A stretch of 53,935 nucleotides of DNA from an uncultured Fibrobacterota bacterium (GCA_964346405.1 CAYFVL010000003.1:1-53935), one strand, 5' to 3'. Shown: positions 10,156 through 37,357, counted from the first letter of the stretch. Program-made: numbers and translations. Notes: generated by a model from the letters alone, not told the origin.

Positions 10156-10210
10156 AATTTCTTGGTGTCCGTCTCATGCCGGTCATTCTTTATATCGGAA
10201 GAAATCGGCT

Positions 10211-12981: not shown

Positions 12982-13201
12982 GGGTCCCTCCTACCTGAGC
13001 ATGAGGCACGATTGAGGAAAATGCCTGCTATCATATCACGCTCATTTCCTGACTTCCGCCTCACTGGAGTCCGAGATGCGCTTTGCGCAGCAACGCTTGA
13101 GAGAAACAGTTTTTTTTCCCTTCACGGAATGCTCCTTTAACACTAGTTTGACGGTAGACCCGGTAGTGTTGCCCTCAAAAGCCGGTTTGCATGGTTTGGT
13201 T

Positions 13202-14734
13202 TCAGGAGGACACATCACCTTCTGTCTGGATAGTATCGGAGTCGGCCCTAATTGAGGTTCTGCACAAGCGAGTAACGCAAACGCACAGAGCTATATAGGC
13301 CCAGAAGAGCGGTGAGGTGAATACATTCCCCCATTCAAAGGCACAATGCAACGACCAGGCACTTAGCCCTGAAAACATTCCAATAGCGACATAACCCATT
13401 ACTCCATTTGAACGGATGGACCTTTGCAAACCGATCAGTGTTACAAATAGAAGCAAAACAAGGAGTATGGCTATCACGACACCGCGCTCGGCGGCAAGGA
13501 GAAGATATTCATTATGGACAGGTGACAACCACCCATAAGAAATGGTTACAGGAGTATAATCGTATTGTCGAGCATAGAGAAGGTAGTTACCGGGACCTAC
13601 GCCGATACTGATATTGTCTACAATCATACCCATGGCGATCTGGACGTGAGCCCACCGACAAATGGCGGTATTCTCGCCCTGAAACAGCCGAGTGCGCACA
13701 TCCGGTCGCGCCAGGAGAACACCCATACTCAAAGCAAACACCAGCCCAATCGAGAAAACACCAGCAAACAATTTTCGATTTGTTCTTTTGGCAATTGAGT
13801 AATACATTGAGACCATTGAAAAGAAAGCGAGGGATACCCAACCTGCCCGTGAGAATGTGAACGTTTCAGCGCAGAACCCAAGAAGAAGGGATATGCCGAC
13901 TGCCAATTTTAGTCGTCTCGCAACGGGAGCGAAGAGGAGAGAGACATGTAAGGGCAGCATAAGCCCAAGATAAGCGGCTAAAACGTTTACACCTCCAAAG
14001 AAGCCCCCCCACCGAGTGATAGTTGCTCCCGCATTGGTGGTAATTTGGCTCTCGCCTTCTCCGAGAAATCTCAGCCCGAAGGAAGTGCCCGTTATGTTCT
14101 GAGCGCACGCAAAACCCGCATGTATAGCCGTTGCCGTCATTAAACCGGCAACGGCAAACAGTATCGCCCACTTACTATTCAAGACATTGCTCATTATGAG
14201 GTATACCACCATACATATCAGGCCGGAATAGAAGATGCCGGTATTATGAATCGGCGAGAGCAGGCTTTTTGACAACCCAAAAGCAGAAAGAACAAGCGCT
14301 ACGAGAATTACGAGCGTTTGGTAGGAGAAGATATGCAATTCCGCGTTCCCCGTTGCGGTTTTTGCCAAAAGAGTTAGTCCCAATATGCACAAGGGTACGA
14401 AAAACAAATCTAAGGTTATGCCTTTCACCGGCAAAAACAGGTCCAACTCCTGATAAAAAAGGTGATAATTGATGGGAAAACAAACAAAGAGGAAGAAAAG
14501 GTACACCAAGACGCCTCTACGATGAGCAATGAACGGCATTGCTAATACAAGAGGGGGAGCCAGGCTTGCCAAAACAGCCCACTTGGTGCTCACGTGTTGT
14601 GTTGCGGAAACACTCACTACGCACATCATGAGTATCCCAGTCATGATTGTCCAGGAACGGACGCCGGTCGCTCGCGGCGACCTGTCCTTAAGACCGTCGG
14701 AGCGAATCATATAATCACTACCGATTTTAAGCAT
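13202..14734 (-). CDS. O-antigen ligase/Wzy-family polymerase
   Basis: Multi-TM protein with TFSRAGW, GVGPGNY and PVHNEYLLLAAERG (Wzy_C-type motifs). Confidence 0.88.
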   Translation of the reverse strand: MLKIGSDYMIRSDGLKDRSPRATGVRSWTIMTGILMMCVVSVSATQHVSTKWAVLASLAPPLVLAMPFIAHRRGVLVYLFFLFVCFPINYHLFYQELDLFLPVKGITLDLFFVPLCILGLTLLAKTATGNAELHIFSYQTLVILVALVLSAFGLSKSLLSPIHNTGIFYSGLICMVVYLIMSNVLNSKWAILFAVAGLMTATAIHAGFACAQNITGTSFGLRFLGEGESQITTNAGATITRWGGFFGGVNVLAAYLGLMLPLHVSLLFAPVARRLKLAVGISLLLGFCAETFTFSRAGWVSLAFFSMVSMYYSIAKRTNRKLFAGVFSIGLVFALSMGVLLARPDVRTRLFQGENTAICRWAHVQIAMGMIVDNISIGVGPGNYLLYARQYDYTPVTISYGWLSPVHNEYLLLAAERGVVIAILLVLLLFVTLIGLQRSIRSNGVMGYVAIGMFSGLSAWSLHCAFEWGNVFTSPLFWAYIALCVCVTRLCRTSIRADSDTIQTEGDVSS

Positions 14735-15809
14735 AGCACACGCGATCGGGATTCGGATGATCGGAGTCGCCCATTGTCACGAAAATCTCCTTTGGATTTA
14801 TTTTCGACGCGCTGCAGAGATCTGTCTCGTAAAAACCCAGAAACGTCTTTGCTGTTTTCCAGGGCAGGAACAGACGGGCCGTAAGCGCGGCAAACCATCT
14901 CCTGCTGGGAGCGCAATACCAGCACTCACATTTCCAGACATCGTTTACCCAAAAAAAACTCATTGCTTGATTCAGAAGAACACCAAACACAGGTCCATTC
15001 GGAGGACATAGCCAGTCTACGAGTAGACCTACCCTGCCGGTTTTTGACGGCTTAATTGCCGTGACCATATAGCCTTCCAGCCTCCTGTTGCGGTATGCCC
15101 CCCAGACCTGATGTCCGGCAATTTTCCTGTCCAGGAATCTCCACGCCACATATTCCGCATCCCTGCGATGAACGTAGCTGAACATATTCTTTACAGCCGC
15201 CCACAAATCATTGAATGATTCATCCACTTCCACAACACGCACAACTTCGAAACCGTCCTGTGCAGCTTTTAACAGTCTACCCATTGCAATTCTATATGTA
15301 TATCGAGCAGGCGCCATTACCCTTGATAGTTTACCGGCGGCCTTCAGAGGATCAAGAAAGCTTATCATTTTTCGAACAGGCCTCTCAAGAAACTGTATCC
15401 TCGTTGACTCACTGAATAACTTTCTGTGATACTGTACAGAGAGATCATTGGCAAACCCGTATACGAACGTAGACCGAGACAGTTCCTTAGATATCTCGGC
15501 AAGATTGTGGTAGATACGTCCGCGCGCCTTTGGTCGCACCATAAGATCAATAGCATTCATCCCGGAGATTTCATCCGAACCTGTAACTATCTTCTTCGGC
15601 CAGTAGCCCGAAAACGCCTGCAAATCACCAACATCATCCGTTATGGTGAAGCCTGTCCCATTGCTCTGTGTTCCGTATTTCCACTCCCATAGGGCCACTG
15701 ATGACCTGTGTCCCCAAACATCCTGTTCCAATAGCGGTAACAATCGTATATCGCTCGCACACAGGGGGCGAACACAGTCCGGGAGCTTCGTTGTACTGTC
15801 AATGCACAC
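14727..15809 (-). CDS. Tandem GNAT-fold acyltransferase of polysaccharide loci
   Basis: WEWKY, DLMVRPKARGR (acyl-CoA motif A-like), YGFAN, RDAEYVAWRF and C-terminal TMGDSD. Confidence 0.75.
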   Translation of the reverse strand: MCIDSTTKLPDCVRPLCASDIRLLPLLEQDVWGHRSSVALWEWKYGTQSNGTGFTITDDVGDLQAFSGYWPKKIVTGSDEISGMNAIDLMVRPKARGRIYHNLAEISKELSRSTFVYGFANDLSVQYHRKLFSESTRIQFLERPVRKMISFLDPLKAAGKLSRVMAPARYTYRIAMGRLLKAAQDGFEVVRVVEVDESFNDLWAAVKNMFSYVHRRDAEYVAWRFLDRKIAGHQVWGAYRNRRLEGYMVTAIKPSKTGRVGLLVDWLCPPNGPVFGVLLNQAMSFFWVNDVWKCECWYCAPSRRWFAALTARLFLPWKTAKTFLGFYETDLCSASKINPKEIFVTMGDSDHPNPDRVCYA

Positions 15810-15848
15810 AATTCGGCAGAACCCTTCTCGGCAGATTTTGCAACCGAA

Positions 15849-16547
15849 TCAGTAGAGCCATTGCGGTACCACGTGTCGATACCGGTTCAGCACAATACCG
15901 CCTACCGAACACCCGTAGCTCGTCAGCATGCTATTGACCCGTTCAACAGCTCTGGCATGAAGGCACTCCGAAGCCACTATCAGAATTACGCAGTCGCTTT
16001 CCCGACAGAAGGCAAGGGATTCCGGTTGAAGTGACAGCGGAGCTAAATCTATGAAAATGTAGTCATACTTATCTCGAGCGAGTTTCATTAACTCTTTTAT
16101 CCCAGAGTAGCTAAACACCGGTCTCGACTTGGTGTATCCTGCCGGCAGAATGCCGGTTTGAGACTCCCGATCCGCTATTACAGAGGCATCGAATTGTTCT
16201 TCACCGGCCAATACATCGGCCAGACCGGGAGTGCGAGCGCAGTAGAATACCTCATGGAGTTGCGGATCTACGAAGTTGGCATCAATCATCAAGGTAGGTG
16301 AATCACTGTTTACGAGCGTACCGAAATCCCTCAGGCCTTTCAATACGGAGGTAACTCCCTGATTCGTTTCTGCACCTAAGAAAGCAAACGATCGATATCC
16401 ATTTTCCTGGTGCATTGCCGCCAACTGTTGCATGAGAAACCCGAATTCTCCAGTGGTCTCGTACACTGCCGTTCCCGATTGTCGAGGGCTCATATTCATC
16501 CCATTGTTCAAGCTGACACCATTCCTTTCCCCCGCATTGAGTTTCAT
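15849..16547 (-). CDS. CpsD/CapB (Wzc C-terminal) tyrosine-kinase-like protein with degenerate Walker A
   Basis: LMIDAN..DP.LH, GLADVL, YDYIFIDLAP and GIVLNR are present. The Walker A region reads GAETNQGVT and lacks Lys. Confidence 0.85.
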   Translation of the reverse strand: MKLNAGERNGVSLNNGMNMSPRQSGTAVYETTGEFGFLMQQLAAMHQENGYRSFAFLGAETNQGVTSVLKGLRDFGTLVNSDSPTLMIDANFVDPQLHEVFYCARTPGLADVLAGEEQFDASVIADRESQTGILPAGYTKSRPVFSYSGIKELMKLARDKYDYIFIDLAPLSLQPESLAFCRESDCVILIVASECLHARAVERVNSMLTSYGCSVGGIVLNRYRHVVPQWLY

Positions 16548-16648
16548 CGCATCGGCCCCTTTTGTACTAAGGTTTCTGTTCAGTTTTCGAATTCAAAACT
16601 GTTCCCTATATCTACCAGATACGTACTCGTTGCAGTTTTGACCAGCGA

Positions 16649-18115
16649 CTATTCACTTCTCTCACGAATACTGCAGAGCACCGGAACACGAAGGACAGTT
16701 TCAATGTCGGAAGCCGTCTTCAAACGAGTATCAAACATCTCAAGTATAAAAGGGGTAGATAGCGCGGCGATTACGGCAAGAATGAGACCAAGCAAGAGGC
16801 TCCTTCCCCTTTTCGGAGAGGACGGGTTCGCGGTCACATCCGCATAATCGGCAACGCTGACATTCGACAGGTTGCGACGCATTTTCTCTGCATTTATGCG
16901 TGCATCCTCGGTCTTCTCGGCATATAGCATATAGTTTTTCGCCTGAAGATCCACGGATCGTAGCACATTCTTTATGCCCACCCAAGTTCGATTGTCTTCG
17001 AGTACTTTTCGCCGCATCTCTTCGATCCTGCTCGATAGTGCCATTTCGCGCGCATTCAGGTTTCTCAGCTCAATCGACTCGGTCTGCAGAGCCTTTTCGA
17101 TTTCTTTATCTCGCTCCGCATTTATTGCATCAACTCGACGAACGATGTCCTGGTATTCCCTGCTCGTTGGCTTGTAACTTGCCGTCACGCGACTTTTCTC
17201 TATCAGTAACGGGACCAAGGCCCGTTCGATCTCAATGAGTGAAGGTATCGTCCGCATGCTCTCAGTTATAGCCAGTTCACTTTCACCATCCAGGGCTTCG
17301 CGAAAAAGCGCAGCTCTACTCCGAGCCTGCTCGGCTTCGACTTGTAGCCGCTTCAGCTCCTTCTCAAGCCCCGTAAGGTTTTCGAAATTCCTTGCATTCT
17401 CTATTTCGAGGTCTACGATGCTATACTCGTTCTGATACTCACTTAGCTTCTGTTCAGATGTATCTAAGCGAGCAAGAAACGAAGTAGCTTGCGATTCGAA
17501 GAACTCCTCACCTTTCTCTATGGTGAAAATTCTACCGTGGTATTCGAGATAGGTTTCCAAAAAGCGATTTAAGACATCCGCCGCCGATTCTGCGTTGGAT
17601 GTGGTCAGCGATAACTGGATCATATTTGAGGCTGCTTTGGTCTTGATTCCCAAAGCCTTCCTCAACATCTGTACCTTACGGTCGATTGGACTGAGGGGTC
17701 TGGTTAATCCGAGCTGTCGACCGGTTTCAGACACTAGGGTCACGGGCAGACGAACAAGTGAACGTATGAACGAAGGCGATGATACATTGGTAAGGAAGTT
17801 CTGAAAACGCTCATCGTAAGATTGCACTACTTCTTTCAGCAAGTCGTCACATTCCATCAACTCGACTTCAGTATTGACATCCTCGATGGTTACTCGGCTT
17901 ATATGCTTTTCATCAGTTCCGGAAGTAATCACCAGCCCTTCGCTTGTTCTTGGAAGAACAATGACTTTGGCCGTACTGGTATACCTCGGTTCGGCAAGAA
18001 AGCTTAGCATAATGATGAGCGACAATAACCCCACCGCCAAGAGGAGGGCCTGTTTCTGCCAGGAAAACCATATTCGTATGAAATCGCGCGGTGTACGGAC
18101 GTTCTTGTGTATCAT
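16649..18115 (-). CDS. GumC/Wzz-type polysaccharide co-polymerase
   Basis: Two TM helices flank a long coiled coil. Motifs PRYTSTAKV, PSSPKR and D.RL....DIE..L.VPVL..I. Confidence 0.9.
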   Translation of the reverse strand: MIHKNVRTPRDFIRIWFSWQKQALLLAVGLLSLIIMLSFLAEPRYTSTAKVIVLPRTSEGLVITSGTDEKHISRVTIEDVNTEVELMECDDLLKEVVQSYDERFQNFLTNVSSPSFIRSLVRLPVTLVSETGRQLGLTRPLSPIDRKVQMLRKALGIKTKAASNMIQLSLTTSNAESAADVLNRFLETYLEYHGRIFTIEKGEEFFESQATSFLARLDTSEQKLSEYQNEYSIVDLEIENARNFENLTGLEKELKRLQVEAEQARSRAALFREALDGESELAITESMRTIPSLIEIERALVPLLIEKSRVTASYKPTSREYQDIVRRVDAINAERDKEIEKALQTESIELRNLNAREMALSSRIEEMRRKVLEDNRTWVGIKNVLRSVDLQAKNYMLYAEKTEDARINAEKMRRNLSNVSVADYADVTANPSSPKRGRSLLLGLILAVIAALSTPFILEMFDTRLKTASDIETVLRVPVLCSIRERSE

Positions 18116-18130
18116 ACAGATTCCTTGGAT

Positions 18131-19156
18131 CTAGTTCTCGTTTACTCTGAAAGCTTCCGTTCCAAAAGTGAAATGAAGAAAATCAGGAACGATACCATTA
18201 ATGTACTGATCAACGAACTGATTTGCTTTGCTAATTCCTGATTTCGGGACATAGACAACATCATACTGGTTCAATTGCAGGTCTTTGTCAACATTCCCAA
18301 ATGCGAGCAACTTCCCGACATTCACCACTCGGCGAATCGGCCGACCATCGTCGGTGCGCGATAATACCACGACCGAGCCCAGCCTGGCGCTCTCCATTTT
18401 CAATTCGGCACTTGCCAGCACACGTAGAATCGTCATAGCCTCATCTATGGAGTACACACCGGGATTTTGCACCTCTCCCAGTACGTAAACCGAATTATTT
18501 CGGGTTTTAGTTAACATTACGGATACGTCAATTTCCGAAAACCCCTCTCGATAAAGCGAGCCTATAGTATCCCGGATTGATGCAAATCTCGCCCCGGCGG
18601 CATTGATTGTGTCGAGAAATGGAAGGAAAAGCGTTCCATCAGGTGACACCGTAACAGTCGTCCGATTGCTTCCCATTTCCTCAACAATTCCGATGAACTC
18701 CCCAGTCTTCTGTTTCACCTCAATGGGATTTATGAAAGTCAAAGGATCGTGAATGGTCTCTCGAAATGATTCGGTAACGTCCTTCGCCAGCGCCGACGCT
18801 GATTTCCCCGCTGCCGGGATTTCTCCTACCGGAGGGAGATGAATTTTTCCGTCTGGAAGTATGGTAACGGTGCGATTGAGTTCCGGATTCGAATAGAACG
18901 ATACGCCTATTCTGTCTCCAGGCTCAAGCAAATACGTCTGTTCACCATTACTATTCACCGACGAGAAGATAATAGTGATTTCATCAGACGGGCCTAAACG
19001 GTAGTCCCGGGATTGTCTTGGAATTGATTTGTCGAATACTCGCTCTCTCCTGATGATTCTGTTTCCAGCACAGCTGCATAGAACGACAACCACAATCAAA
19101 AGAATATAATGTGAACTCTTCATCATAATTCGCTTTCTACTTGGTGTTTTAGCCAT
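18131..19156 (-). CDS. wza: Wza-like polysaccharide export lipoprotein with SLBB domain
   Basis: Lipobox LCSC, Y.L.PGD.I, PDGKI.LP.VG, VYVLGEVQNPG and L...DVVYVPKS. The start may be 19126 or 19123. Confidence 0.9.
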   Translation of the reverse strand: MAKTPSRKRIMMKSSHYILLIVVVVLCSCAGNRIIRRERVFDKSIPRQSRDYRLGPSDEITIIFSSVNSNGEQTYLLEPGDRIGVSFYSNPELNRTVTILPDGKIHLPPVGEIPAAGKSASALAKDVTESFRETIHDPLTFINPIEVKQKTGEFIGIVEEMGSNRTTVTVSPDGTLFLPFLDTINAAGARFASIRDTIGSLYREGFSEIDVSVMLTKTRNNSVYVLGEVQNPGVYSIDEAMTILRVLASAELKMESARLGSVVVLSRTDDGRPIRRVVNVGKLLAFGNVDKDLQLNQYDVVYVPKSGISKANQFVDQYINGIVPDFLHFTFGTEAFRVNEN

Positions 19157-19491
19157 TAGCTATGAAAAATCCATCGAGGTTATTAGAGAACGGTTACCCC
19201 ATTGCAAGAAATGTGTTTGCCGCCATTCAATCCATGCATTTTTCCTGACAATTGTTTATCCCCAGAGGCGGATCTGTGGTACAGCGCTCCCGCCAGGGTA
19301 GTTTTCCAGCCCCCTTCCCCCCGGTAAGCAGGGTTCCTATGCCTGACAGTTCACTCATCTGTCGCATAATGCCTTATGCTTTAGGGAATCTCTCTGAGCC
19401 CTATCTGCGATTTTCGTCCTTAGACGGCCGACCTTCGTTCAAGCTTGCACTTACCGCTACTCCCGCTTTCCAAGAGGCGTGATGGTATTGA

Positions 19492-21357
19492 TCAGTCCAG
19501 GACAAATTCATCTTGCCACCAGTTATCGTTTTCCAAGACAGACTGGTCGGATTTAGACAGCAAACAATTCCCCAACACCACAAAATCCATCTCAGTTCGC
19601 ATAAAACATCTGTACGCGTCCTCCGGCGTGCAGACTATTGGCTCTCCACGCACATTGAAACTGGTGTTCACTAGTACAGGGCATCCACTGTGCTCTTTGA
19701 AAATCTCAAGCAGCCGGTAAAATCTCTCATTTGTTTCTTTATGGACAGTCTGTAATCGCGCGGTGAAATCTACATGAGTTACAGCAGGAACACTGGATCG
19801 AATGACGTATAAGCGTTCAAGCATGCTGAGATTTTCATAATTCCGGGGAAGCTCATTTCGCACCTCTTCCTTAACGCTAGCCACATACTGCATGTATGGA
19901 GAGGTTTCTATAGTATTGAAGTAGGTGGAAGCATCCTGGGCCAATACAGCAGGTGCAAATGGTCGAAATCCCTCACGGTATTTAATCTTCAGGTTCAGTT
20001 TCTTTTGCATCTCCGGGTGTCGAGGGTCTCCCAGGATGCTGCGATTACCTAAAGCCCGAGGCCCCCACTCCATTCTTCCCTGGAACCACCCTACAACGCA
20101 TCCTTTCTCGAGAAGTGATACGACGTTAGTGCACAGTTCATCGAACCCCCCAAAGCTCCGAAATGGCGCATCATACCTTCGTAAGGCGTTCTTAATGTCT
20201 CTTTCAGTGTATTCCGGCCCAAGGTATGCTCCTTTCATGCGGTCATACTTGCCGTCGCACGGAAAGCGATTTCGCCTAAATCCAATGCACGAGACGGCGT
20301 ATGCGGCTCCCAGAGCACCTCCGGCATCCCCGGCGGCAGGCTGTATCCAAATGTCCTCAAAAATACCCGACCGCAGCAATTTCCCATTTGCTACGCAGTT
20401 GAGTGCAACTCCGCCGGCCAATACGCAATTCTTCATACCGGTGAGTTCCCTTGCAGTTCTTGCGAGTCTAAGAACGGCTTCCTCCGTAAACCTCTGAATA
20501 GCAAGGGCCAGATCCATGTATTTTTGAGAAATTTCAGTTTCGGGACTCCTTTTTGAGATTCCAAACAATTTGTTCCATTTTTTATCACGACACATTCGAA
20601 GTCCCGTTGTGAAAGCAAAATAGGACATATTCAGTCCTACACTTCCATCTTCAGCCAGACACACCAGTTCTTCCCTGATTTTCCTCTCGTATTCGTCAGC
20701 CTGACCCGGTGAGCCGTACGGAGCAAGTCCCATCAATTTGTATTCTCCGCTATTCACCCTAAATCCGCAGTAATAGGTGAACGCAGAATACAACAAACCC
20801 AGCGAATGAGGAAAGTGCAATTCCTTTAGAATAGTGAGCCCCTCTGAATCTCCTTTTCCAATCGTGGTGGTTGACCACTCTCCGACGCCGTCAATCGTCA
20901 ATATGGCTGCCGAATCGAATGGAGAGGGATAGAATGCGCCCGCAGCGTGTGACAAATGATGCTCGGGGAAAAACAGAGGAGGAACCCTCCCCCCTTTGTT
21001 GGCCACTGATACAAGCTTTCTCTGAATGTTTTGCTTTGTAAACAGCTTCTCCTTAATCCAGACCGGAGCAGCTTTGAGAAAGCTTGGGTAACATCCGGGG
21101 GCAGTCGCATGAAAAGTTTCCATCAGACGTTCGAATTTCAAATAGGGCTTATCATAGAACGCTACGGCAGTGAGGTCTTCAATCCCCAAGCCGGCCTCCC
21201 GGAGAACATATTCTACCGACCGTAGAGGGAATCCGGCGTCGTGCTTCTTACGACTAAACCGTTCCTCGTGCGCCGCGGCTATAATCTCCCCATCCACCAG
21301 AAGCGTGGCTGCGCTGTCGTGATAGTATGCGGATATTCCTAAAATGGACTCTGACAT
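19492..21357 (-). CDS. CmcH/NodU-family carbamoyltransferase (SxtI-like)
   Basis: Motifs ILGISAYYHDSAA, EERFSRKKH, EHHLSHAA, DGVGE, GEYKLMGLAPYG, GGVALNC, GPRALGNRSIL and NTSFNVRGEP. No signal peptide. Confidence 0.96.
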   Translation of the reverse strand: MSESILGISAYYHDSAATLLVDGEIIAAAHEERFSRKKHDAGFPLRSVEYVLREAGLGIEDLTAVAFYDKPYLKFERLMETFHATAPGCYPSFLKAAPVWIKEKLFTKQNIQRKLVSVANKGGRVPPLFFPEHHLSHAAGAFYPSPFDSAAILTIDGVGEWSTTTIGKGDSEGLTILKELHFPHSLGLLYSAFTYYCGFRVNSGEYKLMGLAPYGSPGQADEYERKIREELVCLAEDGSVGLNMSYFAFTTGLRMCRDKKWNKLFGISKRSPETEISQKYMDLALAIQRFTEEAVLRLARTARELTGMKNCVLAGGVALNCVANGKLLRSGIFEDIWIQPAAGDAGGALGAAYAVSCIGFRRNRFPCDGKYDRMKGAYLGPEYTERDIKNALRRYDAPFRSFGGFDELCTNVVSLLEKGCVVGWFQGRMEWGPRALGNRSILGDPRHPEMQKKLNLKIKYREGFRPFAPAVLAQDASTYFNTIETSPYMQYVASVKEEVRNELPRNYENLSMLERLYVIRSSVPAVTHVDFTARLQTVHKETNERFYRLLEIFKEHSGCPVLVNTSFNVRGEPIVCTPEDAYRCFMRTEMDFVVLGNCLLSKSDQSVLENDNWWQDEFVLD

Positions 21358-21545
21358 AGTTCTGCGGTATTCTCCAAGGCCAAATCAGGCCTGATTGCAA
21401 ATCATTTTAGTATCGAACTTGAAGCGAGCAACGCCTTGAACACGTATTCTTACCTGATCGAATGGCCTCTTGCTTCCATAAGCTACACTCATCGTTTGCC
21501 ACCTTCTCGGATTAGCCTACATGACCGCCGGACAAGATCTCCCTG

Positions 21546-21695
21546 TTAGAATATAGTATAGATAAAAGGGGCCAGCGCACTTCCTCCGGCAAAAAACAAT
21601 AAGCTACCGATAAGGAGTAGCGAGACGACGGCTGGGATTAACCAGTATTTTTTTCTCACTCTCAGGAAGTTCCACAGATCGCGAATGGTTTCCAT
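21546..21695 (-). CDS. DUF5989/SxtK-like 49-aa single-pass membrane peptide
   Basis: Below the ORF-track cut-off; translated by hand as METIRDLWNFLRVRKKYWLIPAVVSLLLIGSLLFFAGGSALAPFIYTIF. GAGG RBS lies upstream. Confidence 0.9.
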   Translation of the reverse strand: METIRDLWNFLRVRKKYWLIPAVVSLLLIGSLLFFAGGSALAPFIYTIF

Positions 21696-21704
21696 ATTTC
21701 AACC

Positions 21705-22112
21705 TCAATAAGGGTTACGCAGGTCATCGATTTCAAAAAGCTTGTTCCTGTCGATGAAGAATGAATGTACATGCTTCCTGTCAAACCGTTCTCGCAACGG
21801 ATCTTCGCCGAAAAGTCTTCTCATTAGTCCAATTGGTGTAATGATCAGCATGAAAATGACCGAAAGGAGAATCCTTGATACGACCTCCCCAAGCAACCGC
21901 GACAATCCGAACCACAAGACAGCGAATGGTTTGAACACCACAGGAGCCCCCATCGCAAGCACCAGAATTATCGTAGCACTCCAAAGGAAAGTCTTTTCTT
22001 TAACCATCATGGCAAGAAGAAGACTCAAAAGTACAAGTGCGAGAGCTGAATCTTTGGCCTGCTCGGTAGATACCGGTCCTATCCTTTTGAACAACTTGTA
22101 AGCGCCCCTCAC
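21705..22112 (-). CDS. SxtJ family membrane protein
   Basis: Motifs P...KP...LW.GL...LG.VVSRILL..IF..IITPIG..RR..G.DPL, ending RNPY. The start overlaps the upstream stop. Confidence 0.88.
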   Translation of the reverse strand: MRGAYKLFKRIGPVSTEQAKDSALALVLLSLLLAMMVKEKTFLWSATIILVLAMGAPVVFKPFAVLWFGLSRLLGEVVSRILLSVIFMLIITPIGLMRRLFGEDPLRERFDRKHVHSFFIDRNKLFEIDDLRNPY

Positions 22113-23311
22113 CGGACAACCCCCTTGTACTCATCCAGACACAAATTCAGAACCCCGGATTCTTCAAGATCCCGGACAATTATCTGCCCTGCCAGCAGCG
22201 AGCCGGAATCATTCAAATGCATTATGTCGTAAAAGTAACCTTTTCTGGGGGGGACATGTCTCTCAAGATCCACACAGACGATATTGTTCATCTTGCTTTC
22301 TGTTCGGACAATTTCGTTGAATCTTTTGTGCAAATCGTAAAATGCTTCCATACTCAACCCTACTGTCTGCAAACGTTTCATATACTCCCTCGTAAAGGCA
22401 TCCGGCATCGGCGACAGACGGGTAGCCTGTGTCATCAGAACAGGCTCAATTCCGTTGCTTCGACAGACGGCGATAAACGTGCGAAGAAGCTTGGTGTATT
22501 CCTGTTCCAACATAGTTTTGTCTATATTAACAGGTTTTCCACGGGCGGCAGCAAACTCATCCGGTGTTTCTCGGCTCAGAATGGCCCTCAGCCTTAGGCT
22601 TATGTTTGGCACCACAAGCTTCATCGCACTCTTTATCAATCCAGTTGGGGAACGCATTTCCTTTAGTGAATGGACTGTCCCCCGTGCCTCGCTCCAGTAA
22701 GAATCGGTATAGAGGAGGACTATGAGATCGTTCCAGTTTTGAAGCAAAACCGCCATATCCGGACCGACGGGTAACACCTTGTTCACCAATGTGTTCAAGG
22801 AGTGAAGCGTTGTATTTCCCGAATATGCCGCATTGATTGTATTCACTTTTCGTCTCGACTTGCTCAACAACTGTCCAACCACGACATGGAACCTGAACTG
22901 TTCAGATACAAATCCACATTCAGTTGTAGACCCGCCCAGAAACGCAATTACGTAATCGGGGCTGGAGTGTGTACTTGAAGGCATGATGAACCCGTTTTCG
23001 TCTATCCTCAGTTTGTATACCTTCTTACGCAGATTGTCCGTTTGTGTCATGTATTCCTCTGGTGGACTGAGACGGAGTGTCCTTAATGGAGGATACTCAC
23101 GCAGTTCAATGTACCGTTTCTCACCGAATACAGCCTCGCCTTCAGCCATGCCCAGTACTGTTTCAATTACCCCAATCACCACAAACAGTAAAATCATGTT
23201 GATCACGACAAGTGTTGCGGCTTTGTGATTCTCAAAAAAGGTCAATGCCTCACCATCCCTCTTATGATGTACCTGAACAACAACGGAATGTTCACACTTC
23301 ACGACACCCAT
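22109..23311 (-). CDS. Membrane-anchored SGNH/GDSL-fold protein
   Basis: N-terminal TM helix; blocks FLGGSTT, NAAYSG, QNWND and DIMHLNDSG (Ser and DxxH intact). Confidence 0.88.
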   Translation of the reverse strand: MGVVKCEHSVVVQVHHKRDGEALTFFENHKAATLVVINMILLFVVIGVIETVLGMAEGEAVFGEKRYIELREYPPLRTLRLSPPEEYMTQTDNLRKKVYKLRIDENGFIMPSSTHSSPDYVIAFLGGSTTECGFVSEQFRFHVVVGQLLSKSRRKVNTINAAYSGNTTLHSLNTLVNKVLPVGPDMAVLLQNWNDLIVLLYTDSYWSEARGTVHSLKEMRSPTGLIKSAMKLVVPNISLRLRAILSRETPDEFAAARGKPVNIDKTMLEQEYTKLLRTFIAVCRSNGIEPVLMTQATRLSPMPDAFTREYMKRLQTVGLSMEAFYDLHKRFNEIVRTESKMNNIVCVDLERHVPPRKGYFYDIMHLNDSGSLLAGQIIVRDLEESGVLNLCLDEYKGVVR

Positions 23312-23364
23312 CCGCGAGAGTTAGACAGTGTTCGTTATCCCGGAATCCCTTAGTGTAAGCAGGA

Positions 23365-24450
23365 TTAAAGATTCAGCCCTACCCCCATCTTGATGTACTG
23401 AAAAGTTGAAAGGTTGTATTGATGATAGCAACAACTCCGGCATACCTCAAACAACTCTTTGTCCAAACGCGAGATAAACATTTTTCGTTTCTCTCCGGAG
23501 AGTATTTCCCTTGCGGATTCAGATCTAAGTGAACCGTAGGAATAGCTGAAGTGAGAGCAAGGAATGACATCTCCATATGGTGTAATGACCATTCGATCTC
23601 TGACAATATGGCACCTTTTGATAGGGTAAACACCATGTAAGAAGTCCCTCTCCTTCAATCGAGATATCACGGTCGCTCTGATCGGAAAAGAGTTACACTC
23701 CTTCTTCATTCTGCTTAGCGTTTCCTTGAGTGTTTTCACCTCGTCCGGTTTCAGCAGCAAGGACCCTTCTTCGGGCACAAACCTGCGGTTGGCAATTGCC
23801 CTTCCCCCAAACATTGCGGATGTCACGCTTTCGTTTGAAGTCTCCGAGATATAATTAAGGTGCAGTTCATCGACATTCATGCCTTTCGCAATACGAAATA
23901 CTTGATGCAATGCTTTAACATTCAGACTGGATATGGTGGTATGAATTCTCAATTGAGGTTTTCGTCTATCTCCAAACCTGCCCCGATGCCTGACCAGGTT
24001 TTCTATCCCCTGGGTGAGATTCTCATGGGCGGTGTGTCCTCTTCTGATGCTGTTATGCAAGTCGGGAGGTCCGTCCATGGAGAGGGTAATCCCGTCCACT
24101 CCCGATTGTACTATCCGTTTGGCAGTTTCTTCAGTCAGCAACATGCCGTTTGTGGTCAGTATGCAGCTATTCCCTGACCGTTTGATATATTCGATTATTT
24201 GGGGGGTATCCTTCCGCATGAGCGGTTCTGCTCCTATGATCGCAAAACGCCTCTTCCCAACGCCCAGAAGCTGATCGATAACGCCGAACCATTCTTCGGT
24301 AGTCAGTTCCTGCTCGATACCTCGGTGAGAGTCTCGACGCAGACCACATGTCCTGCATCTAAGATTACAACGGTATGTTACTTCTAAAGCAGCGAAATCA
24401 TGCTTCCGCTTTTGTGAAAGCTTATCAAAAAAACCGGTAAGTGATGCCAC
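23365..24450 (-). CDS. Radical SAM protein with SPASM/twitch domain
   Basis: EVTYRCNLRCRTC, GAEPLMR, TTNG and SMDG, with C-terminal C...ITPYGDVIPC...CRSCC. Confidence 0.9.
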   Translation of the reverse strand: MASLTGFFDKLSQKRKHDFAALEVTYRCNLRCRTCGLRRDSHRGIEQELTTEEWFGVIDQLLGVGKRRFAIIGAEPLMRKDTPQIIEYIKRSGNSCILTTNGMLLTEETAKRIVQSGVDGITLSMDGPPDLHNSIRRGHTAHENLTQGIENLVRHRGRFGDRRKPQLRIHTTISSLNVKALHQVFRIAKGMNVDELHLNYISETSNESVTSAMFGGRAIANRRFVPEEGSLLLKPDEVKTLKETLSRMKKECNSFPIRATVISRLKERDFLHGVYPIKRCHIVRDRMVITPYGDVIPCSHFSYSYGSLRSESAREILSGEKRKMFISRLDKELFEVCRSCCYHQYNLSTFQYIKMGVGLNL

Positions 24451-24621
24451 AGTGTTTTCTCTTATACTTAGATTGATACGCTCAACGTACGAGAACGAAA
24501 TTACCTGAGAGAATGCCTGGAGGTGAATTACTCACACTAGGACTACCGTACCGCATGAAAGGGATACCTTCGCACGCACCTCGAATTCCATACTTTTTGC
24601 CAATCGGCAATTGAACTCGAA

Positions 24622-26097
24622 TCATACCGCGCCGGTACCCCGGACAACGGTCAAGGCTGTCTGGAAAAGTATCCTGAGATCAAGAGCCAGCGACCACTTG
24701 TCTATATAGGTGAGATCCATTTCCATCCATCTTTCAAACGAAACATTGCTGCGACCACTTATCTGCCAAATGCAGGATATCCCGGGTTTTACAGACAGCC
24801 GCCTCCTGAATGCATCATTTTCGAAACCGTTGTAATCACGCAATGGAAGTGGACGGGGACCAATGAGACTCATTTCACCCCGTAATACATTTATCAATTG
24901 GGGTAATTCATCAATACTTGTTCGTCTGAGGATTCTGCCGATTTTTGTTACCCTCGGATCCTCTTTCATCTTGAATACCGGCCCCGTGACGTCATTGCAC
25001 GCCTCCAGGCTTTTCAGCATACCCTCGGCGCCGGGAATCATTGTTCTGAATTTGTACATTTTGAAGATGCGTCTATTGAGGCCTATTCGCTTTTGAGAGA
25101 AAAGTATCGGTCCATGCGAAGAAGTCTTGATTGCGGCGGCAGTAATCAATAAAATGGGTGAAAGCAATAGAAGAAGTATCGTCGCGACTGTCAAATCCAG
25201 AAGACGTTTGGCAATGGATGCCCATCCATCGATCGTTTTGGTTTGATGGAAGACGGTGGCGATGTTGCCGATCAGGTGCGATTCGGTACTGAACTTCACG
25301 GAACTAAAAAATGCTGGTTCATACCGAACACTTATCCCCTGAAGCTCGCATTGTAGTAGGAGCTTTTCGAGCCAGGAATAGTATGACCTGAGAGGTAGTG
25401 CTACGAATACCTCATCCACCACGTGTTCTCGTAAGTATCCGAACACTTCATCCAAGGAACAAACTGTCCGTCGCCCCCCTGCGCGAAAGCCTTCCGCCCT
25501 CTTCCATTCGTCATCTGCGAATCCCTTCAGGCAATACCCGAGCAATTTATTGCCCTCGATACGTTGCGCAAAATCACACGCCCGTTCATTGGTACCAATA
25601 ATCAACACCCATCGAATATTTCGATTGTGCTTGTGGAGTATACGTTGGATCCCGCGCACAATCGTCCTGCTACCCAGAAGGGCCATACTAAAGGTAATGA
25701 AGAACGAGATGCCTATCTGCGGTGTTGCGAAAGGCTTTTGTTGTAACAGCATGATAACATAAACAATAGCCGAACATGTGGCACTCGCCTTCAACGCATC
25801 GATGAGTTCGGATTTGACGGACGTAAGGCGTTTGTTATGGTACAGACCGTACGCAACAAAGGTGTAGTGCCAGGAAAGAAGGAAGACGAACACAGTTAGC
25901 ATATCCTCAACAGAAACGTTCTTCGTAAGTAAGGTACGCAGAGAAGATGTGCCTTCGCTGTATTCAACGAGCCCCAGGGATACAAGAAAGCAACCTAAAC
26001 CCAGCACAAGATCACTAATCTTGAATACATCCCAAAGTATGCTACGTATTTTTGTATTCATGAGCCTGCCGAAATCATCTTGTAAAATTATGTGCAC
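24622..26097 (-). CDS. Undecaprenyl-phosphate sugar phosphotransferase (WcaJ/WbaP type)
   Basis: N-terminal TMs, a Rossmann-like domain, KRLLDL, FKMYKFRTM, DPRVT.IG..LR.TSIDELPQL.NVL.GEMSL.GPRP and KPG. The start may be 26061. Confidence 0.95.
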   Translation of the reverse strand: MHIILQDDFGRLMNTKIRSILWDVFKISDLVLGLGCFLVSLGLVEYSEGTSSLRTLLTKNVSVEDMLTVFVFLLSWHYTFVAYGLYHNKRLTSVKSELIDALKASATCSAIVYVIMLLQQKPFATPQIGISFFITFSMALLGSRTIVRGIQRILHKHNRNIRWVLIIGTNERACDFAQRIEGNKLLGYCLKGFADDEWKRAEGFRAGGRRTVCSLDEVFGYLREHVVDEVFVALPLRSYYSWLEKLLLQCELQGISVRYEPAFFSSVKFSTESHLIGNIATVFHQTKTIDGWASIAKRLLDLTVATILLLLLSPILLITAAAIKTSSHGPILFSQKRIGLNRRIFKMYKFRTMIPGAEGMLKSLEACNDVTGPVFKMKEDPRVTKIGRILRRTSIDELPQLINVLRGEMSLIGPRPLPLRDYNGFENDAFRRRLSVKPGISCIWQISGRSNVSFERWMEMDLTYIDKWSLALDLRILFQTALTVVRGTGAV

Positions 26098-26509
26098 CTC
26101 AGTCGATCCATTCAGGTTGTGATAGAAAATCGTACCATAAAATTAGAACCATATTAGCAGATGATATGTTTTTGGTGAGCCGACCGAATCCGTTCTGATG
26201 TTCCTATCTATTTATTGTCTGCATGGTCACAACTTGCCATCACCCGACTGTGGTCCGCCCCATGTTTTTTCTCTATACTCACTCTTCCCATATAAGCATT
26301 GTTCCTAACAGGAATAGAACGTATTCCGAATGGAATTCTCGTGGTATTCGGTCTTGGCCCTAGTTATTTTTGGTGAGAATTTACAGGAAAGTGATAAGGG
26401 AAGATCGGTCCGTTACTTTTACTTTTGTGTAAATGTACCCTTCCGATCGACAGCGGTTGTCCCGGCGAAGAGCCGCAGAGCCGACCTAACAAATACTCTC
26501 CGGCAAATT

Positions 26510-27424
26510 ATGATGTCTACAGGTAAGCAGACAATTCCGATGTCGAAGTCCGAAGCTGAGAATAGGAGTCCATTCCCACAGCTATTTGTAATTGGTGCTG
26601 CAAAGGCCGGCACAACTTCTCTGTACCACTACTGTAATCAGCATCCGCACATATTCATGAGTCCAATTAAGGAAACTAATTTCTTCGCACGACCATCCAA
26701 GAGGTTTTCATCACCTGTGAAGAATATCGATGAAGCCAAGTTCCCGATAAAATCTCTGCAGCAGTATCAGAGCTTGTTCGCAGAAGCCGGAGACGCTCGG
26801 GTTTGCGGCGAGGCATCTCCATTGTACCTGGAGACGCCCCAAACTGCCCGAAGGATAAAGGAGCAAAACCCTTCAGCCAAATTTGTGGCAATTTTGCGCG
26901 ACCCGGTGGATCGCGCGTATTCCGATTATCTTATGGGCAGAAGATACGGAGAGTATAAGGGGGGACTAAATGATGCAATGCAATGGAATTCCCACTTTGT
27001 TCAGGTGGGAAGGTATGCCCACAATCTTAGGCCTTTTCTCAAAGAATTCCCTCGAAAAAATTTCCGGTTTTTTCGATATGAAAATTTGAAGAGCGACCCG
27101 GCTGGGATGATGCGGGAGCTGTACCAGTTTCTTGATGTCGACCCGACCTTCACGCCCGACTTCTCAGTGGCACACAACCCTGGCGGCACCCCAAGAAGTT
27201 CAACGGTGAATCGCCTCTTGATCAACCAAGCCCTTCGACGAACGTTCAGAAGAATGTCACCGGCATGGCTTCGTGAACTGAGGTTACTTCTCGTCAAACG
27301 CAATCTTGGCCCGGCACCAGATCTGCCGACAAGCATTCGAAACGAGCTGAGAGAATACTACAAGGACGATATTCAAGAATTGGAGAAGATACTCGAGACG
27401 GATTTGTCGGATTGGCTTGAATGA
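26510..27424 (+). CDS. PAPS-dependent sulfotransferase
   Basis: 5'-PSB motif IGAAKAGTTSL, KE.NFF, GEASP.Y and 3'-PB motif LRDPVDRAYS. Start is uncertain (26330/26510/26540). Confidence 0.93.
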   Translation: MMSTGKQTIPMSKSEAENRSPFPQLFVIGAAKAGTTSLYHYCNQHPHIFMSPIKETNFFARPSKRFSSPVKNIDEAKFPIKSLQQYQSLFAEAGDARVCGEASPLYLETPQTARRIKEQNPSAKFVAILRDPVDRAYSDYLMGRRYGEYKGGLNDAMQWNSHFVQVGRYAHNLRPFLKEFPRKNFRFFRYENLKSDPAGMMRELYQFLDVDPTFTPDFSVAHNPGGTPRSSTVNRLLINQALRRTFRRMSPAWLRELRLLLVKRNLGPAPDLPTSIRNELREYYKDDIQELEKILETDLSDWLE

Positions 27425-27520
27425 AGCATTCCCTTTTTTGCTGGGCCTCGCCAGGATGCAGTGTAAACGTTCCGATAACGTTTACCTCCAGGCTGTGGTC
27501 AAACATACCGAAAGAATCGC

Positions 27521-28678
27521 ATGAATTGCAAAAATGAATCGGAGCATCCACGATGCGTCTGTATTGTTCGTGATCGGATTCTCCCCGTATCAGAGACATT
27601 CGTAAAGAATCAGGTTCTCTTCTTGCGGCGATACCGGCCTTTTTTGGTTGGCTCACGAAGAGTTAATGGCCTCGATACAGGGAACTTGGAATGCCATGTA
27701 ATAAACCCGGGGAACATACCGGGAAAAATCCTGGAACTGCAGTATAAAGTCTTCGGGTATGCACCATCCCTCGTTGATTCTATTCTAGATAAGAAGCCGA
27801 GCCTGATTCATGTGCATTTCGGAAAAGATGCCACTCTCTTTTTACCAATTCATGCTCAAATAGGTAAGCCGATGATAGTGACATTTCACGGGCTTGATGC
27901 CTACCAGGACGATCGATGGAGAAGAGGACAACCAAATCCTACCCAACACCTTTATCTCCGCCGTCGGGATCGGCTCATTAAGGAAGCCGACCGTTTTATT
28001 GCGGTTTCAGAAATGTGCAAGAGAGGTCTGCTCAGGCAAGGATACCCCGAGGACAGAATCACAGTACACCACATAGGTATCGATACCGATGCATTCTACC
28101 CCGCCACCAAGCCAAAACCCAATAGCTATGTGCTTTTTGTTGGGAGGCTGGTGGATTACAAGGGGTGTCGGCAGTTGATTCAGGCAATGCAGCCGGTTCA
28201 AGAAATCTTTCCAGAGCTGAAACTGATCATTATTGGCGACGGCCCGGATAGGGGCTCGCTGGAAAGATTGTCTTCGAGAACTCTTCGCGAATATCAATTC
28301 TTGGGTTCGTTACCACCTTCGGATGTTGCAGTGTGGATGAGAGGATCTCATATTCTCAGCGTTCCCAGCAAGTGGGAAGGGCTTCCGACCTGCGTGATGG
28401 AAGCAATGGCTTCGGGAGTACCATGTGCCCTTTTCGATATTCCGGGAACGCGCGAGGCGCTGGGTGAAGAACTCGGCAGGTATCTGATCAGGAATGGTGA
28501 TTGGAGGGAACTGTCACAAATGATTATGAGATTAACGAAAGACCATTCGCTTTACGAGTACCTAAGCGCGGTCGGTAGAAGGCGGGCACTTGACCGTTTT
28601 AATATTAGTCGTCAAACGGCCGTCCTTGAAAGCATCTATGATGAAGTAGTGGATCGGCATCCCCTTTTGCATGCATGA
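27521..28678 (+). CDS. Glycosyltransferase family 4 (WcaL-like)
   Basis: Motifs SETFV, HVHFG, TFHGLD, FVGRLVDYKG and EGLPTCVMEAMASG (EX7E). Confidence 0.93.
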   Translation: MNCKNESEHPRCVCIVRDRILPVSETFVKNQVLFLRRYRPFLVGSRRVNGLDTGNLECHVINPGNIPGKILELQYKVFGYAPSLVDSILDKKPSLIHVHFGKDATLFLPIHAQIGKPMIVTFHGLDAYQDDRWRRGQPNPTQHLYLRRRDRLIKEADRFIAVSEMCKRGLLRQGYPEDRITVHHIGIDTDAFYPATKPKPNSYVLFVGRLVDYKGCRQLIQAMQPVQEIFPELKLIIIGDGPDRGSLERLSSRTLREYQFLGSLPPSDVAVWMRGSHILSVPSKWEGLPTCVMEAMASGVPCALFDIPGTREALGEELGRYLIRNGDWRELSQMIMRLTKDHSLYEYLSAVGRRRALDRFNISRQTAVLESIYDEVVDRHPLLHA

Positions 28679-33314: not shown

Positions 33315-33455
33315 TCCATACTCCTTTACACTTTAATTTGGAGAACGCGCTAAAGAAACTATGAGGCCGCTGTTTTACAATAAATATTCATTCAGAATGT
33401 CAGATGAGTAGGGCAATCGGGTTAGTTTCCGACCAGAAACGACCGCCCCAAACAC

Positions 33456-34337: not shown

Positions 34338-34642
34338 TCCAACTCCTTTTCTGGTCGGTTTTGTTCATGCTCATAATAATAAGCAGTTTCTGTTCAAGTC
34401 ACGTTTCGTAAGTGTTAGAATTCTGCTTTTTCTAAACAGCGAATTGCTGGGATTATCGTCGATGATTGCTTTTTTCTTGGTGAGTTTCCGATAGAGAGAC
34501 AGCCTGCGTCGTCCCGAAACCGCCTGCTAACAATCACCAAACCATTTTCAAATACCAGCCTAGCAACCAAAGCCTATATTGAAACCTTATTAGTGATGTG
34601 CCGGCAAAAATTGGCGGCTTTTTCGGGAGAAAGGACTTCTCG

Positions 34643-36859: not shown

Positions 36860-36889
36860 TTCGGATTACAAAGGAGATGATTCCTCTTA

Positions 36890-37078
36890 GGGCTCGCGCA
36901 AAAACGGCCTTCGCATTTTTCGTTTGCTCTTGTTTGCACATATCTTTGGTTCGACGCGCTCACCACATCGCGTTGCATCTCTTGGGCATAGCGCCATTGC
37001 TATGGCTCTGCGAGATGCGCCTTGATATCCACAAAAATGGCTGCGCGAGTAAATGAAATCTTATTTCTACGCGAACCC
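36890..37078. mobile_element. MITE-like element, family A (complete copy)
   Basis: Imperfect TIRs GGGCTCGCGCAAAAA / TTTCTACGCGAACCC flanked by TTA on both sides. Central hairpin GCATCTC..CATAGC..GCTATG..GAGATGC. A second copy lies at 48134. Confidence 0.75.
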
Positions 37079-37357
37079 TTAAGCAAGTCGTGTATTGACA
37101 ACGTCGTCATATCGGTTCACCTCTGACGCTCTGTTATTCGGTTGGTTCCCTTCTTCAGATCTTTATCTACAAACGGTATTGTCATAAAAGTGCGGGTCGT
37201 CTCTGCGTTCATATTCTCTTCAGTCTGGAGAATATCCGCAGGACCTCCGGAGTCCGTTGATCGATGAATCCTTCATCTATCCTGCTCATCAATTCAGCGA
37301 ACCGGTCTCCAAAACTGCTAGCACTGCAGATCCTCGTGGAACTGTCAGTCAGTAATG

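Follow-up and report, generated by a model that had tools for sequence, protein, structure and literature searches.

A DUF5989 microprotein with an MBOAT-type C-terminal tail and a candidate carbamoyl relay in an exopolysaccharide locus of an uncultured Fibrobacterota bacterium

Introduction

The stretch of DNA analyzed here (53,935 nucleotides, hereafter the window) is one whole contig (C3) of the genome of an uncultured Fibrobacterota bacterium (GCA_964346405.1, CAYFVL010000003.1:1-53935). It carries, within a Wzx/Wzy-type exopolysaccharide locus, a cassette of genes for an SGNH protein, an SxtJ-family membrane protein, a 49-amino-acid DUF5989 peptide, and an O-carbamoyltransferase (CT). The cassette raises the question of why a free peptide encoded beside a CT should end in the tail motif of MBOAT acyltransferases when no MBOAT is encoded at the locus. 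We found that the cassette is real, conserved, and widespread, and that its DUF5989 peptide has a DltX/MBOAT-type tail, a new observation that we regard as solid. For the function of the cassette, we see about an even chance that it would be a DltX-like trans-membrane relay, which passes a carbamoyl group as carbamoyl-tyrosine to an extracytoplasmic SGNH transferase, without an MBOAT and with a different donor module.

Two routes are known for the extracytoplasmic acylation of bacterial envelope polymers, MBOAT-SGNH and AT3-SGNH, and each proceeds via an acyl-tyrosine. In the available text of PMC12148441, the hexapeptide FXYXXF is described as an 'acyl shuttle', whose tyrosine receives the acyl group from DltB or PatA and passes it to the catalytic serine of DltD or PatB, and a bare acetyl-FIYANF peptide is described as a sufficient donor for PatB. 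In the literature searched, which held part of the relevant texts and did not extend to subscription-only papers and supplements, we found no statement of a carbamoyl tyrosine shuttle and no mention of DUF5989, and titles and abstracts gave nothing relevant on the combination of a carbamoyltransferase, an SGNH protein, and a polysaccharide. The initial annotation of this DNA, which proposed such a relay, had stated that no description of the pathway was known, and within the same literature none was found in print.

Organization of the cassette

The open reading frame (ORF) listing and Pfam searches gave the following features, which form a co-oriented run on the minus strand.

22109-23311, minus strand: SGNH/GDSL-family protein, 400 amino acids (Lipase_GDSL_2 PF13472, E 9.2e-9)
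21705-22112, minus strand: SxtJ-family small membrane protein, 135 amino acids (PF19588, E 3.9e-8)
21546-21695, minus strand: DUF5989 microprotein, 49 amino acids (PF19451, E 5.1e-24)
21549-21566, minus strand: codons for the C-terminal F-I-Y-T-I-F motif, with Tyr46 as the proposed carbamoyl acceptor
19492-21357, minus strand: O-carbamoyltransferase of the NodU/CmcH/TobZ type, 621 amino acids (Carbam_trans_N PF02543, E 5e-86; second domain Carbam_trans_C PF16861, E 9.2e-74)

The four ORFs of the initial annotation agree in coordinates and strand with this listing, and all of them have Pfam support. The start of the SxtJ gene overlaps the stop of the SGNH gene by 4 nucleotides, and the DUF5989 peptide starts 9 nucleotides past the SxtJ stop, with a Shine-Dalgarno-like GAGG about 7 nucleotides 5' of its ATG. 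A promoter and terminator scan of positions 19000-24700 gave no signal exceeding that of shuffled sequences.

C-terminal tail of the DUF5989 peptide

The DUF5989 peptide (METIRDLWNFLRVRKKYWLIPAVVSLLLIGSLLFFAGGSALAPFIYTIF) consists of a basic N-terminus (RVRKK), one transmembrane (TM) helix, a GGSA linker, and the tail APFIYTIF-COOH. The basic patch, the linker, and the ending were all found as they had been annotated, with positions 21546-21566 corresponding to the stop codon and the six tail codons. The peptide scored 84.5 bits against PF19451, for which the cut-off is 27, and its residues 1-49 were aligned to profile positions 1-49 of 49. In length (49 amino acids), in its single hydrophobic stretch, and in its FIYTIF terminus, it has the layout of DltX.

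To describe the family, 2518 cluster representatives were collected by an exhaustive search at E up to 0.001, and the best 150 of them were examined. In an alignment of 54 close homologues obtained by a word-indexed search, K15, W18, P21, A42, P43, F44, I45, Y46, and F49 were invariant; because A42, P43, F44, I45, Y46, and F49 are among these columns, conservation within the peptide is highest in the tail. The N-terminal segment, which is predicted to be cytoplasmic, is also conserved (F10, R14, K15, K16, W18, L19, and P21). The statistics of the tail were obtained from 201 distinct sequences, representing the nearer part of the family with at least 48% identity. An exact FxYxxF terminus was found in 179 of the 201 homologues, while 18 had the intact motif followed by an unrelated-looking extension, read as a likely miscalled stop, two had FIYTL followed by S or N plus an extension, and two terminated in FVYMMS or FIYVIG. 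The conservation of the tyrosine and the terminal phenylalanine, on which the proposal of the initial annotation depends, was borne out, the former being present in 201/201 and the latter in 197/201 homologues. The mean net charge in 190 homologues was +2.6 for the N-terminal 18 residues and 0 for the tail, and this bias predicts, from charge alone, an N-in/C-out orientation of the peptide.

The tail was compared with those of MBOATs from 22 loci, 20 of which were from genomes carrying the cassette and two from the window's own genome. The consensus of the last 12 DUF5989 residues was G-S-A-[LVI]-A-P-F-I-Y-[TSA]-[LI]-F-COOH, and that of the MBOAT tails was [GS]-x-x-[SNA]-[PEA]-F-[IL]-Y-F-[QNR]-F-COOH. 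All 22 MBOAT loci contained an ORF of at least 350 amino acids ending in [FY]xYxxF, typically SPFIYFQF, NPFIYFRF, or SEFLYFQF. Alignment by hhalign of the DUF5989 profile with the profile of the last 49 MBOAT residues gave Prob 86.3 and P 4.7e-6 over 20 columns, with the same C-terminal end. In the window's genome, three of 79,710 stop-to-stop frames (at least 40 amino acids) ended in F[ILV]YxxF, namely the DUF5989 peptide and two MBOATs, and the occurrence of the tail in this genome is far beyond chance. The acyl-shuttle-like ending that had been claimed is the same motif as that of the MBOAT tails and stands at the extreme C-terminus, after a TM helix and a Gly/Ser linker. The claim at the motif level is well supported because of the in-register profile match, the uniqueness of the motif in the genome, and the shuttle described in the available text of PMC12148441.

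All three genes with the F[ILV]YxxF ending have a same-strand SGNH-family neighbor, and in the window only SxtJ intervenes. Four of the seven matches of the SGNH hidden Markov model (HMM) in 5.56 Mb lie beside these three genes. Both MBOATs of the window's genome (C161:115-2650 and C6:392-5900) end in SPF[IL]YFQF and are followed by same-strand SGNH-family genes, and the genome thus holds three separate sets of a shuttle motif and an SGNH protein.

A search of PDB sequences with the DUF5989 profile returned only chance TM matches (E 0.5 or more), with no DltX chain among them, and the Atlas protein-feature search with the peptide gave no usable match. None of 76 candidates for longer or fused DUF5989 forms scored, which is weak evidence. 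Two single ORFs joining SxtJ to DUF5989 (P0161 and P0178) diverge from the consensus of SxtJ ahead of the junction and resemble frameshift artefacts. In a 185-amino-acid Atlas cluster, DUF5989 was found on 11% of the members.

Conservation of the CT-SxtJ-DUF5989 triad and its independence from MBOAT and AT3

The locus survey, in which one genome per species was used, yielded more than 572 confirmed loci, and the best 80 were examined. These 80 span Gemmatimonadota, cyanobacteria (Prochlorococcus and Crocosphaera), Pelagibacteraceae, Bacteroidota, Desulfobacterota, Acidobacteriota, Omnitrophota, and others. Because the tail served as one of the two search patterns, tail conservation cannot be measured from these 80 loci. 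Among them, all foreign to the window's genome, iterated searches with the window's proteins detected CT in 76 and SxtJ in 78, in nearly all cases directly next to the peptide. Of the four loci in which CT was missing, three lie at contig ends and the fourth has a DDE transposase at the site of the CT gene. These counts indicate a near-obligate CT-SxtJ-DUF5989 triad in the best 80 loci, so that the co-occurrence called for in the initial annotation was observed for these three components.

The sole well-flanked locus without CT (L006:8065-9435) has the DDE transposase immediately upstream of the peptide and is probably a disrupted cassette. In another locus (L003:5558-9469), SxtJ-DUF5989-CT is directly preceded by a gene for the large chain (1303 amino acids) of a CarB-like carbamoyl-phosphate synthase, which suggests a dedicated supply of carbamoyl phosphate. 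Single frames joining CT to SxtJ in L054 and L044 (L044:8316-9092) are probably frame artefacts in high-GC DNA and were not used.

Pfam searches detected neither MBOAT nor AT3 on the window's contig, and the locus thus lacks an MBOAT, as had been noted, over the whole contig; the genome has two MBOATs (C161 and C6) and two AT3 genes (C247 and C128), all on other contigs. PF03062 (MBOAT) was absent from 29 of 50 carrier genomes, many of these 29 being incomplete metagenome-assembled genomes (MAGs). The MBOAT-free set includes a complete 1.75-Mb Prochlorococcus chromosome, in which an SGNH gene comes right after the DUF5989 peptide. In two other complete chromosomes, the nearest MBOATs are 0.48 and 1.5 Mb away from the cassette. 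An MBOAT partner, which characterizes the functional type of DltX, was found neither on the window's contig nor in those 29 of the 50 genomes.

SGNH protein and its linkage to the triad

The SGNH protein has an N-terminal hydrophobic anchor at residues 31-56 and contains Ser128 (in GGSTT), Asn160, Asp195, and D362-I-M-H365. In alignment A3, G126, S128, and N160 were invariant in 28/28 rows, and the Asp and His of block V were kept in all but a few broken rows. The intact catalytic serine and DxxH of the initial annotation were accordingly present (S128, N160, D195, D362, and H365), together with a predicted TM anchor. The protein is predicted to lie outside the cytoplasm with its catalytic residues intact, and its gene is near that of the peptide. 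In most DUF5989-adjacent SGNH proteins, block V reads Asp-x-His, and in the window's protein it reads Asp-x-x-His. Block V of AlgJ and AlgX is Asp-x-His, with one residue between.

The AlphaFold2 (AF2) model of the SGNH protein had a mean predicted local distance difference test (pLDDT) of 72.0 and a predicted TM-score (pTM) of 0.68, with a long helix at residues 24-62 and a confident SGNH core. Foldseek gave 146 PDB matches at E up to 0.001, and those listed were all SGNH/GDSL folds, esterases. Among the matches listed, the best by VIA-align was CgnD (8a2n; Z 21.0, root-mean-square deviation 3.3, 238 residues aligned), three Z above the next. CgnD was also the only one of the solved proteins listed to match the SGNH family profile in one full-length stretch (E 1e-12). 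With its C-terminal half, the same profile matched AlgX (E 3.9e-7 and 2e-6) and AlgJ (3.3e-4); DltD and PatB were not among the structure and profile matches listed. The source names of the SGNH homologues were generic.

Among the 149 ORFs adjoining the triads, Lipase_GDSL_2 PF13472 was the most frequent Pfam family (18); ALGX was found in 4, and assorted methyltransferases came next (7). When neighboring ORFs were grouped by phmmer clustering, the window's SGNH protein fell into the largest cluster (41 members; 35 of 80 foreign loci), and a family HMM was built from this cluster. Of the 39 other members, 34 have a strongly hydrophobic N-terminal segment, and the five exceptions are fragments. 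With this HMM, an SGNH gene was found no more than 300 nucleotides from the triad in 31/80 loci; in the 52 loci whose flanks reach at least 3 kb on each side, it was within 3 kb in 29 and within 300 nucleotides in 24. The background, estimated from 77 matches over 84.5 Mb for the A3 profile (1e-10) and 7 over 5.56 Mb for the cluster HMM (1e-5), is about one match per Mb, and linkage to the triad is roughly hundred-fold over chance, a rough comparison because the thresholds differ. Sixteen of 19 genomes without a linked SGNH gene have an unlinked, near-full-length one (E 1e-20 or better), which could serve other systems.

In an alphaproteobacterial MAG (L058:9489-15750), the SxtJ, DUF5989, CT, and SGNH genes are followed, in this order, by an MBOAT with a FIYFDF end and then by a second SGNH gene on the opposite strand, so that a carbamoyl cassette adjoins an MBOAT-SGNH cassette. 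SGNH matches in L103 (E 1e-79 and 3e-64) were self-hits and were not counted, as the DNA of L103 is part of L058, already contained in the HMM. The remaining SGNH matches in the flanks of MBOATs were truncated ORFs and not subfamily-specific.

SxtJ and the carbamoyltransferase

Across 58-68 homologues, W67, P93, and R99 were the only conserved residues of SxtJ. Its AF2 model (pLDDT 88.5) comprises helices at residues 16-37, 41-55, and 57-100, the last of which is 44 residues long, and the Atlas feature search with SxtJ returned only sub-threshold leads (0.83 and 0.76). The CT consists of a Kae1-like N-terminal and a YrdC-like C-terminal domain, with no signal peptide apparent. In phmmer searches (E 1e-76 to 1e-85), its residues 10-602 were aligned with NovN (9s2t, 2.1e-85), GdmN, and another carbamoyltransferase, and TobZ was aligned in three stretches. 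The CT contains the motif GPRALGNRS, described in the available part of a June 2026 preprint as the putative catalytic site of SxtI. Prediction of a complex of the SGNH protein, SxtJ, and the peptide gave ipSAE values of 0.07 and 0.06 against a mark of 0.32, was made without controls, and speaks neither for nor against the relay.

Proposed relay and alternative explanations

In the proposed relay, the cytoplasmic TobZ/NovN-type CT would make carbamoyl-AMP from carbamoyl phosphate and ATP, as judged by family membership only. The carbamoyl group would then be placed, in a membrane complex with SxtJ and DUF5989, on the Tyr46 phenol of the APFIYTIF-COOH tail. By analogy with DltX-DltD and PatA-PatB, the resulting O-carbamoyl-tyrosine, an aryl carbamate, would carbamoylate the Ser128 of the anchored SGNH protein at the extracytoplasmic face, and the SGNH protein would pass the group to a hydroxyl of the exported polysaccharide. 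Such a relay would explain the motif, its placement and conservation, the linkage to SGNH, and the absence of an MBOAT. Aryl (phenyl) carbamates are classical carbamoylating agents of serine hydrolases, which makes the chemistry plausible. We regard the relay as a well-motivated hypothesis with one unexplained step, the loading of the tyrosine.

Several results weigh against the relay. The DltX profile PF12459 matched 0/54 DUF5989 homologues at E up to 10 and nothing in the window's genome, but did give matches in B. subtilis and L. lactis, used as controls; the comparison of DUF5989 with DltX made in the initial annotation does not hold at the level of profile homology, and for this reason the tail may be convergent. 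The hhalign match to the MBOAT tails spans just 20 columns. SxtJ has no conserved His, Ser, Asp, or Cys among the 58-68 homologues, its model has no fold match in the PDB by Foldseek at E up to 0.001, and it does not look like an MBOAT-type catalyst. The idea that SxtJ might replace the MBOAT as a conduit has co-occurrence as its sole basis. Among the matches listed, the solved structures nearest to the SGNH protein are those of esterases and of the slow hydrolase CgnD, with neither DltD nor PatB among them. In 23 of the 52 well-flanked loci, one of which (L013) has its triad between lysA and dapF, the 3 kb on either side yielded no SGNH protein of this family, and the SGNH step is therefore not universally linked. 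Some of the SGNH neighbors may moreover belong to MBOATs, because an MBOAT adjoins the cassette in L058. To our knowledge, all characterized relatives of the CT (NovN, GdmN, and TobZ) carbamoylate their final acceptor directly. Loading of the tyrosine by the CT is pure inference and the weak point of the scheme, since the enzyme is cytoplasmic, whereas the tyrosine is predicted on the outer face, with no known route between them. The case for the relay is made here from genes, sequences, and models, and the carbamoyl-tyrosine, the topology, and the complex are put forward as proposals.

On balance, the analysis bears out the motif, the intact SGNH protein, the lack of an MBOAT, and the synteny with sxt genes given in the initial annotation. 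The conduit role of SxtJ and the loading of the tyrosine by the CT stay conjectural, profile homology to DltX was not found, and the SGNH protein, which is adjacent, anchored, and intact in the window, is not an obligate neighbor, as none was found within 3 kb in 23/52 loci. We put the probability of the relay at about 0.5, because the relatives of the CT act in the cytoplasm, the tyrosine is predicted outside, and SxtJ has no obvious catalytic residue and no known channel fold.

The main alternative, which we consider rather unlikely, is that SxtJ and DUF5989 are non-covalent subunits of the CT, tethering it or presenting its substrate, and that the CT modifies the undecaprenyl-linked repeat unit before the Wzx flip; the tail would then be a structural or docking element and the SGNH protein a separate tailoring enzyme. 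This accords with the direct action of every characterized CT homologue on its acceptor, with the lack of catalytic-type conserved residues in SxtJ, with the 23/52 well-flanked triads that have no nearby SGNH gene, such as L013, and with the conservation of F10, R14, K15, K16, W18, L19, and P21 in the N-terminal segment of the peptide. It leaves unexplained that conservation of the peptide peaks in the tail, which is predicted to be extracytoplasmic, that this tail equals the MBOAT shuttle motif at the exact C-terminus and is unique to such genes in the genome, and that SGNH is the most enriched neighbor.

A relay through the peptide tyrosine might also exist with the SGNH protein as an editing or recycling enzyme (a decarbamoylase or esterase), the transfer to the glycan being performed by SxtJ or another protein. 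SxtL is labeled 'decarbamoylation' by hypothesis in the available text of PMC2679770 and PMC2885083, the nearest solved SGNH structures among the matches listed are esterases and the hydrolase CgnD, and the SGNH gene is dispensable as a neighbor in about 44% of the loci. We nevertheless consider this arrangement improbable, as the SGNH partner of the same motif is a transferase in the solved MBOAT systems (PMC12148441, available text), the SGNH profile also matches, over its own C-terminal half, the transferases AlgX and AlgJ, and the flanks of the triad offered no alternative conserved partner. Still less probable is a convergent or coincidental likeness of the tail, with the peptide serving an unrelated role, for example in CT regulation or assembly or as a small export component. 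The motif is short and hydrophobic, and the peptide has no HMM similarity to DltX and yielded no usable neighbor in the protein-feature search; the motif is, however, specific (3/79,710 frames), with its tyrosine in 201/201 sequences, an in-register profile match, and linkage to SGNH.

Comparison with known systems

Like the DltX-DltB-DltD system as presented in the available text of PMC12148441, the cassette has a membrane microprotein of about 45-50 amino acids with a C-terminal FxYxxF, a cytoplasmic activating enzyme, and a membrane-anchored SGNH-like partner. Unlike that system, it has neither an MBOAT nor a carrier protein, its small partner is SxtJ, its donor enzyme is an O-carbamoyltransferase using ATP and carbamoyl phosphate, and the group moved would be carbamoyl, not D-alanyl. 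PatA/PatB and AlgI/AlgJ/AlgX share the identical tail architecture (TM helix, Gly/Ser linker, and [SA]PF[IL]YxxF-COOH) and the adjacent SGNH protein, but in those MBOAT-SGNH pairs the tail is fused to an MBOAT with 8-11 TM helices and a catalytic His, with acetyl-CoA as the donor, whereas in the cassette it is on a free 49-amino-acid peptide. AT3-SGNH proteins of the OatA type resemble the proposed relay in that an acyl-tyrosine on the membrane domain feeds the extracytoplasmic SGNH domain (PMC12148441, available text), but they are single fused polypeptides using acetyl-CoA.

The sxtI-sxtJ-sxtK-sxtL genes of saxitoxin clusters, compared by type, order, and size, are the same four gene types in adjacent positions. 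The sizes of sxtI, sxtJ, sxtK, and sxtL are 1839, 405, 165, and 1281 bp, respectively, in the table of PMC2679770 as available, and those of the corresponding cassette genes are 1866, 408, 150, and 1203 bp. The synteny that had been claimed is thus apparent in the adjacent CT, SxtJ, short ORF, and GDSL protein of similar sizes, and the window's protein matches the Pfam family SxtJ. In the available texts of PMC2679770, PMC2885083, and the 2026 preprint, SxtJ and SxtK are given as 'unknown' or 'hypothesised to work in conjunction' with SxtI, and SxtL as a decarbamoylase by hypothesis. The acceptor in the sxt clusters is a small alkaloid, unlike that of the cassette, which would be a polysaccharide.

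The CT is the same two-domain enzyme as the stand-alone TobZ, NovN, GdmN, NodU, and CmcH, to which it aligns over its full length (E 1e-76 to 1e-85). Stand-alone O-carbamoyltransferases modify the final acceptor in the cytoplasm by themselves, and we know of no need for membrane partners of the SxtJ and SxtK type. CgnD, the best structural match to the SGNH protein among those listed, is from the crocagin cluster, which also contains the carbamoyltransferase CgnI; in the available text of PMC10070186, CgnD is a very slow leader peptidase that was studied in soluble form. The product of the CgnD pathway is carbamoylated, and the likeness to CgnD is a lead only.

Somewhat more tentatively than for the cassette itself, DUF5989, SxtJ, and a NodU-type enzyme could form a widespread MBOAT-independent machine that moves carbamoyl as O-carbamoyl-tyrosine to SGNH transferases, in which sxtJ, sxtK, and sxtL would be recast as relay parts. 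The sequence clusters of such a machine would number at least 2518 and would range from Prochlorococcus and SAR11 to Gemmatimonadota and Desulfobacterota. If the relay is true, periplasmic O-carbamoylation would be a third class of envelope-polymer acylation beside MBOAT and AT3 and a mechanism for glycan O-carbamoylation after export, with an aryl carbamate as a protein-bound group donor, which would be new chemistry. The SGNH protein rather than the CT would be the last transferase, and SxtJ, SxtK, SxtL, and perhaps CgnD-like enzymes would be relay parts, which would give a function to DUF5989, SxtJ, and SxtK, unexplained in the available texts of the 2009-2026 literature. In abundant bacteria of the sea and of soil, the cassette would also be a clear marker, at the genome level, of carbamoylated surface glycans.

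Surrounding exopolysaccharide locus and other genes in the window

The locus around the cassette contains genes for GT2, Wzx, Wzy, Wzc-like, and Wza proteins, the cassette, a radical SAM/SPASM protein, an initiating phosphoglycosyl transferase, a sulfotransferase, and GT4. The Wzx/Wzy context given in the initial annotation was borne out by the following Pfam matches.

9229-28678: Wzx/Wzy-type exopolysaccharide locus around the cassette (Pfam scans)
11476-12981: Polysacc_synt
13202-14734: Wzy_C
16649-18115: Wzz/GNVR
18131-19156: Poly_export
24622-26097: Bac_transf

Elsewhere in the window, five long ORFs (one at 1999-3729 and four within 31464-42027) matched no Pfam family at E up to 0.001.

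31464-33314: ORF, 616 amino acids
34598-36859: ORF, 753 amino acids
37358-40387: ORF, 1009 amino acids
40516-42027: ORF, 503 amino acids
1999-3729: ORF, 576 amino acids

The radical SAM/SPASM gene (23365-24450) lies on the same strand as the cassette, between the genes for the initiating phosphoglycosyl transferase and the SGNH protein, and further radical SAM genes are located at 3873-5222 (B12-binding) and 42351-43355. The sulfotransferase-family gene is located at 26330-27424, within the polysaccharide locus, and because of its presence there the polysaccharide may carry sulfate besides carbamoyl groups.

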